DNA of 42,455 bases, from the IMG/VR virus record IMGVR_UViG_3300029194_000007; one strand, 5' to 3'. The translations under genes were made by a program, and so were the position numbers. Origin of the DNA: a virus. The notes beneath the pieces were generated by a model. It did no database searches, was not told the DNA's origin, and saw nothing but the letters and a program-made list of their open reading frames with translations. Positions 37,206-37,429 of this stretch are shown here, piece after piece. The first letter of the stretch is position 1. Each line of letters starts with the position of its first letter.

Positions 37206-37292
37206 AACTGTTCGTTTTAATGGTTCCCGGATAGGCAATCAAGCCACACCGGGATAAAATGAGTAACCTATATGGCATTCAGTTTGAATGCG

Positions 37293-37429
37293 TGGGCGGT
37301 ACGAGACTTGAACTCGCGACCTATAGCTTTGCCGAAGAAAAAAAACTTAACTACCAATACCATGAAAAGAGATTAAAAACACACAACTCTTCGATAACTG
37401 CCATCGCTCTACCCCTGAGCTAACCGCCC
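37293..37429 (-). tRNA. tRNA-like gene with a 72-nt anticodon-loop region (canonical 7 nt plus about 65 nt extra); isotype undetermined
   Basis: The minus strand reads GGGCGGT-TA-GCTC-AGGGGTA-GAGC-G-ATGGC-[72 nt]-GCTAT-AGGTC-GCGAG-TTCAAGT-CTCGT-ACCGCCC-A. The acceptor, D, T and anticodon stems all pair. No CCA is encoded. Confidence 0.6.

Follow-up and report, generated by a model that had tools for sequence, protein, structure and literature searches.

A candidate non-decoding, tRNA-shaped RNA with an extended anticodon arm in temperate phages of Phocaeicola and Bacteroides

We analyzed a stretch of viral DNA of 42,455 nucleotides (nt) (IMG/VR record IMGVR_UViG_3300029194_000007; its whole length is referred to here as the window), the minus strand of which carries, at positions 37293 to 37429, a tRNA-like gene with a long arm in the place of the anticodon loop. 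The explanation that we favor, with moderate confidence, is that this gene specifies an accessory RNA of temperate Phocaeicola/Bacteroides phages that is functional and tRNA-shaped but does not decode, in other words, a natural "tRNA scaffold." The RNA keeps a tRNA body competent to adopt the L shape, including the acceptor, D, and T arms and the nucleotides that make tertiary contacts, and its anticodon loop is replaced by an arm that consists of a 5-bp stem, an AGUU/AWA internal loop, a covarying helix of 5 to 7 bp (P1), and a loop of 47 to 67 nt. It thus combines an intact acceptor/T/D handle with a selected non-tRNA module at the anticodon loop, which is the arrangement of the tRNA-scaffold class, a functional class and not a sequence family.

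The gene comprises 137 nt, from G1 to the discriminator A at position 37293. It does not encode CCA, which is normal here, since a host tRNA gene likewise lacks an encoded CCA. The 5' part of the tRNA body (37400 to 37429, minus strand) contains the 5' strand of the acceptor stem, U8-A9, the D arm GCUC-AGGGGUA-GAGC, G26, and the 5' strand of the anticodon stem, AUGGC (37404 to 37400). The 3' part (37293 to 37327, minus strand) contains the 3' strand of the anticodon stem, GCUAU (37327 to 37323), the variable loop AGGUC, the T arm GCGAG-UUCAAGU-CUCGU, the 3' strand of the acceptor stem, and the discriminator. An earlier note, made by a model from the letters of this DNA, had described the acceptor stem GGGCGGU/ACCGCCC, all of these arms, and an anticodon stem that encloses 72 nt, and each of them was found exactly where it had been placed. 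The note had also proposed a search with Infernal against Rfam. The tRNA family RF00005 matched the gene over its full length (model positions 1 to 71 of 71) with 45.9 bits, which is well above the gathering score of 29 (E = 9e-7, computed for the whole window), and the alignment places "[72]," i.e., 72 nt, at the position of the 7-nt anticodon loop. This tRNA match was the only Rfam match in the 42-kb window, and a search of positions 37150 to 37550 at an E value of ≤10 for another RNA family or a small ribozyme in the insert returned, besides the tRNA, a single chance match. Orthologues scored 50.1 and 51.6 bits with RF00005, so that the cloverleaf stems and the conserved tertiary nucleotides are recognized with 45.9 to 51.6 bits and are accompanied by covariation in all stems (see below). 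The minimum-energy fold of the single sequence is a cloverleaf with a long irregular hairpin.

That hairpin is the extended anticodon arm. After the 5-bp anticodon stem, the insert starts with the 5' side of an internal loop, AGUUAU (37394 to 37399), of which AGUU is invariant in 32 of the 32 unique family sequences. It continues with the 5' strand of P1, CGAAGAG (37387 to 37393), the large terminal loop (37340 to 37386; 47 nt), the 3' strand of P1, UUCUUCG (37333 to 37339), and the 3' side of the internal loop, GCAAA (37328 to 37332), in which the final A-W-A that precedes the 3' stem strand is conserved in the family (all positions on the minus strand). The inner helix of the earlier note, CGAAGA (37393 to 37388) paired with UCUUCG (37338 to 37333) across a 6 by 5 internal loop, corresponds to this P1 and proved to be correct. 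Judged by eye, neither a K-turn nor a sarcin-ricin motif fits the AGUU/AWA junction.

To place the element in a family, relatives were recovered with exact and degenerate DNA patterns and from the neighborhood of homologues of the adjacent DUF4494 gene. We obtained 32 unique versions from viral and metagenome collections, which form four clades named by a reference sequence. Clade W, to which the window belongs, and clade L033 share the acceptor stem GGGCGGU/ACCGCCC and have inserts of 70 to 73 nt and 74 nt, respectively; clade L038 has the acceptor stem GGGGGCU/AGCUCCC and inserts of 69 to 74 nt, and clade L039 has the acceptor stem GGAAGCU/AGCUUCC, the D stem GCGC/GCGC, and an insert of 88 nt. 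All 32 sequences are interrupted at the same point and occupy the same locus, and the neighboring DUF4494 protein is 50 to 66% identical between the four clades. The earlier note had considered that an uninterrupted tRNA at this site in related phages would argue against a meaningful insert; no such phage and no uninterrupted orthologue were found in the viral, metagenome, or species-representative genome collections. A pattern for an ancestor with a 7-nt loop retrieved just an unrelated tRNA-Asp, and tRNAs that share the 5' half of the element were unrelated Val or CAU tRNAs. A blastn search of INPHARED phages with the locus gave no match, and among isolate genomes a protein-based scan of the genome contigs was empty and the DNA signature gave one chance match. 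Another chance match of the degenerate pattern (L099, 362 to 453), from a metagenome-assembled genome that is a giant virus by its contig name, is an unrelated tRNA with an insert of ~40 nt in the anticodon region that looks like a eukaryote-type tRNA intron.

Comparison of the clades indicates that the RNA fold is maintained by selection. The core alignment was ungapped and comprised 90 columns of 21 distinct sequences, covering the tRNA body and 7 nt from either end of the insert centre. The cloverleaf and P1 were paired in 92.7% of the cells of this alignment, compared to 36 to 41% when the 3' partners were slid by 1 to 3 columns. Nearly half of the pairs (13 of 28) change on both sides, and the covariation score of 0.324, against 0.157 for shuffles, was reached by none of 500 shuffles. 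Compensatory pairs were present in each of the five helices, namely, the acceptor, D, anticodon, and T stems and P1, and in P1 the pairings between clades include CGAAG/CUUCG, CGGUC/GGCCG, CGGUC/GAUCG, CGGUC/GACCG, and GACGG/CCGUC (CGAAGAG/UUCUUCG in the window, CGGUC with GGCCG, GAUCG, or GACCG in clade L038, and GACGG/CCGUC in clade L039). RNAalifold, applied to full-length representatives, independently returned the same cloverleaf and P1 and nothing else, with 11 of 25 pairs compensatory. In addition, the tertiary-contact nucleotides U8, A14, G18, G19, and A21 are invariant, and the tRNA body is 73 to 90% identical between clades, compared to 64 to 74% for the flanking coding sequences. 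The covariation that the earlier note had proposed to look for in the inner helix, and the conservation of its internal loop, were thus both observed. Neutral decay would not be expected to leave such a pattern, and since all stems show compensatory changes across four diverged clades, a decayed pseudogene is ruled out on comparative grounds. The earlier note had reached the same conclusion from the intactness of the arms, which is a weak reason; intact arms in the 14 closest relatives are uninformative because these are ~97% identical throughout, and the real support comes from the compensatory changes between the four clades.

The terminal loop is conserved in a different manner. Its minimum free energy is −0.4 to −3.8 kcal/mol, and z scores of +0.5 to +1.4 against dinucleotide shuffles in every clade indicate that it is less structured than expected; RNAalifold predicted no helix within it. 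The loop is U/G-rich and poor in C, with 49 to 59% U and 4 to 9% C across clades, compared to 27% T and 17% C for the whole strand, and only 43 of 42,405 50-nt segments on this strand are equally T-rich and C-poor. The insert centre had been called AU-rich in the earlier note, and this can be refined to U-rich (59% U and 6% C in the window); A+T amounts to ~75%, with a strand bias of U far above A. The sequence itself is only 51 to 72% identical between clades, with many insertions and deletions in U and GU runs, and the words UAAUCU and UUCAUGRU recur in all clades in a partly conserved but not invariant form. Length and composition are kept while the sequence drifts, and selection therefore appears to act on the length, composition, and single-strandedness of the loop and not on its exact sequence. 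The T run at the 3' end of the loop (37338 to 37345, minus strand) has between 6 and 9 T in phages that are otherwise almost identical, and U and GU runs in the loop of clade L038 also differ in length; slippage during replication, a relaxed constraint, or errors of assembly could account for this. The insert was rejected as a coding region, as direct reading showed that the reading frames shift with the length of the T run and between clades.

Several observations argue against a role in decoding. (i) A decoding tRNA has a 7-nt loop with U33, the anticodon at positions 34 to 36, and a purine at position 37, whereas 69 to 88 nt replace that loop here. Every possible joining of the flanks gives G33, which is invariant according to direct reading and ARAGORN; the earlier note was right that no 7-nt loop with U33 results from joining the two ends. 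(ii) Orthologues do not share an anticodon or an isotype. ARAGORN, which the earlier note had suggested running, called no tRNA in the whole window in its default mode; its intron mode called one in every clade but with differing intron lengths and with the inconsistent assignments Cys-GCA, Cys-ACA, His-GUG, and Thr-GGU for orthologues. When the last 7 nt of the insert (CGGCAAA, CGUCAUA, or CGGAAAA) are read as the loop, the anticodon is GCA in three clades, UCA in clade L039, and GAA in one variant, and the first two nucleotides of such a loop, C32-G33, are base pairs within P1 that covary as helix positions. (iii) The insert of 65 to 80 nt is, as the earlier note had stated, far too short for a group I intron (at least ~200 nt), and no match to Intron_gpI or a ribozyme was obtained even at an E value of ≤10. 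The junction is a symmetric internal loop of 4 to 6 by 3 to 5 nt with unpaired segments that face each other, unlike the staggered 3-nt bulges of a bulge-helix-bulge (BHB) motif. (iv) Bacteria lack the tRNA-splicing endonuclease, and no RNA ligase or endonuclease was recognizable in a scan of the ~45 open reading frames (ORFs) of the window. Since no join yields U33, the anticodons are inconsistent, and no splicing enzyme is recognizable, a spliced decoding tRNA is unlikely. The alternative that an insert of ~65 nt is removed by some self-splicing or protein-dependent route, and that the product decodes like the tRNAs of Lak megaphages, must be seen in this light. The tRNA body is fully canonical, and the last 7 nt CGGCAAA resemble the loop of tRNA-Cys except at position 33, but the discriminator of tRNA-Cys is U73 and that of the element is A73. 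There is a precedent in the short anticodon-loop inserts of tRNAs from Bacteroidota phages (PMC6784885); the Lak introns, however, lie at position 37/38 and leave a canonical C-U-NNN-R loop, which the phage element does not. The intron-containing phage tRNA proposed in the earlier note, for which U33, a conserved anticodon, BHB or group I features, and a splicing enzyme are all wanting, is thus disfavored, and we regard it as highly doubtful.

Three further explanations were considered. RNase P and RNase Z require only the acceptor/T domain of their substrates and not the anticodon arm, and the element may be a cis-acting punctuation mark of the mRNA, a "t-element" at which cuts by these two enzymes would separate and stabilize the mRNAs of DUF4494 and of the downstream 118-amino-acid (aa) ORF (ORF118) and NinG and would release a functionless RNA. 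Its location between same-strand genes of one operon agrees with this, as do the conserved flanking hairpins, which could cap the processed mRNA ends, and the slot of a more distant clade (L036, see below), the degenerate acceptor/T-arm structure of which is tRNA-like only below threshold. In plant mitochondria, tRNA-like t-elements are reported to act as such processing signals (PMC1920247). Cleavage by the two enzymes would nevertheless not call for the anticodon stem, the AGUU/AWA loop, P1, and the loop length and composition, all of which are maintained, and related prophages have no RNA at this position, which implies that the operon needs no punctuation there; we consider this explanation unlikely. 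An antisense small RNA on a tRNA scaffold is an idea that we hold to be improbable to a similar degree. Its U/G-rich loop, including UUCAUGRU (the complement of AUG plus A-rich codons), would pair with A-rich translation initiation regions of the host. The loop is predicted to be single stranded, both UUCAUGRU and UAAUCU occur in partly conserved form in all clades, and the U/G richness permits wobble pairing with A-rich targets, but targets in the phage genome did not exceed shuffled controls, the identity of the loop between clades is low with frequent insertions and deletions, and CAUG is not invariant (CAUAG in L160). Least of all do we expect a non-functional relic, i.e., a tRNA gene killed by an insertion, or an element that works as DNA, such as an origin or binding region rich in A+T, which seems extremely improbable to us. 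The variable T run among near-identical phages and an A+T-rich loop within a replication/recombination module are what such a relic or region would show, yet compensatory changes in five helices and invariant tertiary nucleotides persist while the neighboring protein has fallen to 50% identity, and the strand-specific excess of U over A points to selection on the RNA strand.

Returning to a non-decoding tRNA scaffold, we envisage that RNase P, the 3'-end trimming enzymes, and the CCA-adding enzyme of the host would recognize the tRNA body and cut the RNA from an early transcript or from a transcript of its own, and that the tRNA body would protect it from decay. The arm would then hold out the single-stranded U-rich loop, and possibly also the internal loop, as a binding surface acting in trans. 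The RNA would be neither aminoacylated nor used in decoding. The likeliest partner may be a protein that recognizes the tRNA shape and/or U-rich single strands, such as a tRNA-directed nuclease or an RNA-binding protein, and A-rich mRNA start regions would be less likely partners; we infer this preference from the combination of conserved composition and drifting sequence, which fits a protein better than a base-pairing seed. A more specific version, to which we give a low probability, is that the phage makes a tRNA decoy or sponge that is matured by the host and that presents the U-rich pseudo-anticodon loop on the AGUU/AWA junction to titrate a host factor recognizing the tRNA shape. This factor might be an anticodon-loop nuclease of anti-phage defense or a global single-strand RNA-binding protein, and the effect might be protection of the phage or reprogramming of the lysogen. 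Among the possibilities listed in the earlier note, a tRNA-scaffolded small RNA and a decoy fit best, and neither is proven; nothing speaks for a packaging or priming element.

A number of points weigh against a functional scaffold of this kind. The comparison comprises only four deep clades of one phage lineage, and the number of independent compensatory events is modest. The folding energy of the single sequence is unexceptional (z = −1.33), and since it is unremarkable by itself, the case for a real RNA rests on the covariance-model score and the comparison of relatives. The mode of action is one that we infer, and no partner protein was identified: the adjacency of DUF4494 amounts to module synteny only, and its resemblance to the fold of eL20 is weak. 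No significant antisense target was found in the phage genome (the best duplex had −32.7 kcal/mol, compared to minima of −29.8 to −34.6 kcal/mol for shuffled loops), PADLOC reported no defense-model matches near the element, all the tRNAs of the cell would be competitors of a decoy, and neither promoter nor terminator gives more than weak evidence of an independent transcription unit. Two candidate arrangements were rejected. DUF4494 as the RNA partner was dismissed on the basis of weak PDB fold matches (TM score, ~0.3), an empty profile search against PDB sequences, and the observation that in distant annotated phages protein genes directly follow DUF4494. A layout like that of a type III toxin-antitoxin system was dismissed because PADLOC was empty and the downstream ORF varies within clade L038 and occurs without the RNA in L168 to L170.

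The gene content of the window is that of a temperate Bacteroidota prophage of the siphovirus type. Its genes encode an integrase (SAM_5 plus Arm_5), TerS, TerL, portal and capsid proteins, KilA-N, Dam and C5 methylases, NinG/Rap, DUF3127, and DUF4494. On either side of the element are DUF4494 (37479 to 37922) and ORF118, the latter followed by NinG, all on the same strand, and this neighborhood is a replication/recombination module. Relatives on long metagenomic contigs are integrated at a host tRNA-Arg(CCG) beside asnA and ung, which was seen for phages of the window and L038 types (L147, 7291 to 7363; also L128, L129, and L136); the window stops ~1.3 kb short of this tRNA gene. An L038-type prophage is flanked by genes for LptD and DUF1343 whose protein sequences are exactly those of Phocaeicola vulgatus, and P. 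vulgatus is the host of L147. The window-type phage is integrated at the homologous site of a related species, where the flank is 80% identical in nucleotides. An isolate genome of P. faecalis (GCA_965318375.1) carries an L033-type element, and all metagenome matches come from human gut samples. Judged by these flanking genes, the hosts are P. vulgatus, P. faecalis, and relatives, and the phages are Phocaeicola/Bacteroides prophages; relatives of TerL were uninformative for host assignment, and the flanking genes were used instead.

The slot after DUF4494 is not always filled by the RNA. In prophages of B. thetaiotaomicron and of a B. congonensis-like type, it contains no RNA but an ORF for a hydrophobic, small membrane protein of ~62 aa, and in the relative L172 there is no gap and nothing is present. 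As relatives have either this ORF or nothing, the slot is, to judge from gene order, a variable accessory, moron-like position and the tRNA-like RNA an accessory gene. The hydrophobic protein (MRFIQFILSILLVVCSF...) is encoded at positions 1099 to 1299 of L168 and 956 to 1156 of L170, where it was not called as a gene. In a fifth clade, with a DUF4494 protein that is 49% identical, the slot has a different, degenerate tRNA-like structure (L036, 4514 to 4588; the same in L037) in which the acceptor stem has 6 bp, the T arm is GGGUUCGAAUCCC, and the D and anticodon arms are aberrant; it gave a subthreshold match to tRNA-Sec (18.2 bits, E = 0.37).

The element is flanked by further RNA structures. 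A leader hairpin, GCCG-UCUAACCUGUGAGGGUGAAG-CGGC (37434 to 37461, minus strand), lies 4 nt upstream of the 5' end of the tRNA in all four clades. Changes in its stem keep the pairing (GCCG/CGGC, GCCGG/CCGGC, and GUCGG/CCGGC), and the leader is 74 to 88% identical between clades, compared to 64 to 74% for the flanking coding sequences. A trailer hairpin, GCAUUCA-AAC-UGAAUGC (37275 to 37291, minus strand), which the earlier note had also detected, begins 2 nt after the discriminator. Either hairpin could serve as a cap for mRNA ends after cuts by RNase P and RNase Z. Upstream of the leader, direct reading found a promoter-like box, TAGGTTTA (37462 to 37469, minus strand), that matches at 7 of 8 positions TAnnTTTG, which we take to be the consensus of the Bacteroides −7 box; clade L039 has an exact match (8 of 8), TAGGTTTG. 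There is no −33 TTTG upstream of the TAGGTTTA box. In clade L038, a different hairpin in the trailer position is followed by a U run and resembles a terminator, and no canonical terminator was scored in the window. The match to the −7 box and the terminator-like hairpin of clade L038 are a weak hint of an independent transcription unit. Neither TTTCATGRTAWT nor the upstream TAGGTTT block was enriched in the window as a recurrent motif.

Other structures and genes near the element were also noted. Just upstream of the downstream ORF, the hairpin CCCGG-UGU-GGC-UUGAUU-GCC-UAU-CCGGG (37226 to 37253, minus strand) is the most conserved segment of the intergenic region, with 86 to 96% identity between clades. 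Its inner stem is compensatory in L036 (GGC/GCC to GCU/GGC), and the hairpin is kept where the downstream gene differs (in clade L038, some phages have ORF118 there and others a PYMGSK-type methylase). The hairpin may be an RNA that regulates in cis or a site to which a protein binds. Between the tRNA-like gene and this hairpin, L038 (~4715 to 4755), L039 (~1375 to 1415), and L036 (~4615 to 4650), but not the window, have a motif of two hairpins, CGCUA-UUAAAGGG-UAGCG followed by the T-arm-like GAGG-UGCAAGU-CCUC. The first stem covaries (CGCAC/GUGCG and GCGCUG/CGGCGC), and the motif has no Rfam match. The DUF4494 protein (37479 to 37922, minus strand) was modeled confidently by AlphaFold (pLDDT, 86) as a tandem beta-beta-alpha-beta repeat with a weak likeness to the eukaryotic ribosomal protein eL20 (TM score, ~0.3) and to PDB entry 2qsd. 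The genes among which it is found in other Bacteroidota phages (RecT, NinB, VRR-NUC, and RusA) suggest that it takes part in the recombination or replication of DNA. A protein of 313 aa (35508 to 36449, minus strand) had no match in Pfam, PHROG, or PADLOC and is annotated as hypothetical everywhere; it is 72 to 98% conserved in ~580 database proteins from Bacteroides/Phocaeicola prophages, always near NinG and DUF3127, and its gene is a widespread member of the replication/recombination module. Two ORFs that resemble HNH endonucleases (30386 to 30706 and 31182 to 31628, minus strand) lie just upstream of the terminase genes, and adjacent genes for a Dam-type and a C5-cytosine DNA methyltransferase occupy positions 32254 to 33483 (minus strand); neither set is unusual in phages of this type.

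Phage tRNA genes are usually regarded as aids in codon usage and, more recently, as replacements for tRNAs destroyed by defense systems. Here, a common prophage lineage of human gut Phocaeicola/Bacteroides keeps a tRNA in which the decoding part is replaced and the rest is under purifying selection, and it therefore appears that the tRNA shape itself is the useful part. Should a stable processed species exist, nature would have its own equivalent of the laboratory tRNA scaffold, and, since isolate lysogens are available, the RNA would be a tractable entry to RNA-based phage-host interactions in Bacteroidota, which to our knowledge have no Hfq and whose small-RNA biology is poorly known. If the decoy reading is true, a bacteriophage would here provide the first natural example of a non-decoding tRNA-scaffold effector. 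In practical terms, default tRNA finders miss the gene and intron-tolerant modes assign arbitrary isotypes, and either can corrupt phage annotations. tRNA-like non-coding RNAs are already known as a kind, but in a literature search we found no report of a non-decoding, tRNA-shaped phage RNA with this architecture, which appears to be new, and among Rfam families the element matches tRNA alone.

The relation to known systems can be summarized as follows. With canonical elongator tRNAs (RF00005), the phage RNA shares the acceptor, D, anticodon-stem, variable, and T elements as well as U8, A14, G18-G19, U54-U55-C56, A58, and the discriminator, and it differs from them in lacking the 7-nt anticodon loop, U33, and a conserved anticodon, in place of which it has an arm of 69 to 88 nt with a large loop. 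Like transfer-messenger RNA (tmRNA), it combines a tRNA-like acceptor/T domain with a long extension on the anticodon side. Unlike tmRNA, it is far smaller, has a full D stem, and lacks G3:U70 (the 3:70 pair is G-C or A-U), pseudoknots, and a tag ORF, and the tmRNA mode of ARAGORN and the tmRNA families of Rfam gave no match. A tRNA-like fold that serves as a handle for RNase P, RNase Z, or the CCA-adding enzyme without decoding is known from the viral tRNAs (vtRNAs) of the gammaherpesvirus MHV68, mascRNA, the bacterial Y RNA YrlA, and the t-elements of plant mitochondria. None of these is known to insert a cargo by way of an anticodon stem that is otherwise canonical: YrlA is a circular permutation with respect to the phage RNA, and the vtRNAs carry hairpins 3' of the tRNA. 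No Rfam match to the vtRNA, mascRNA, YrlA, or t-element families was obtained in the search of positions 37150 to 37550. Group I and BHB introns also interrupt tRNAs in the anticodon arm, but the former are longer than the phage insert (at least ~200 nt compared to 65 to 80 nt, with Intron_gpI unmatched), and the latter, which are archaeal or eukaryal, have staggered 3-nt bulges that are missing from this RNA of a bacterial host. Closer in origin are the "enigmatic" tRNA introns of the Lak megaphages of Prevotella, which comprise 79 to 114 nt in the anticodon region, match no Rfam family, and are conserved between genomes (Devoto et al. 2019, PMC6784885). These are inserts of a similar kind in phages of Bacteroidota; however, they lie at position 37/38, leave a canonical C-U-anticodon-R loop with an assignable isotype, and often contain a T-arm-like sequence (PMC6784885, Table S6), whereas the phage element is U-rich, has no T-arm-like sequence, and leaves no usable loop, as its exons do not rebuild a canonical one. 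The same design is found in the engineered tRNA scaffold of Ponchon and Dardel, in which the acceptor stem, T arm, and D arm are kept, the anticodon stem-loop is the insertion site, and the product is processed precisely, modified, and protected from degradation in Escherichia coli (PMC3753655). The architecture is identical, with an RNA inserted through an anticodon stem that preserves the hairpin, but the scaffold is man-made, whereas the phage arrangement is natural and conserved and has an AGUU/AWA junction and an unstructured, U-rich cargo.

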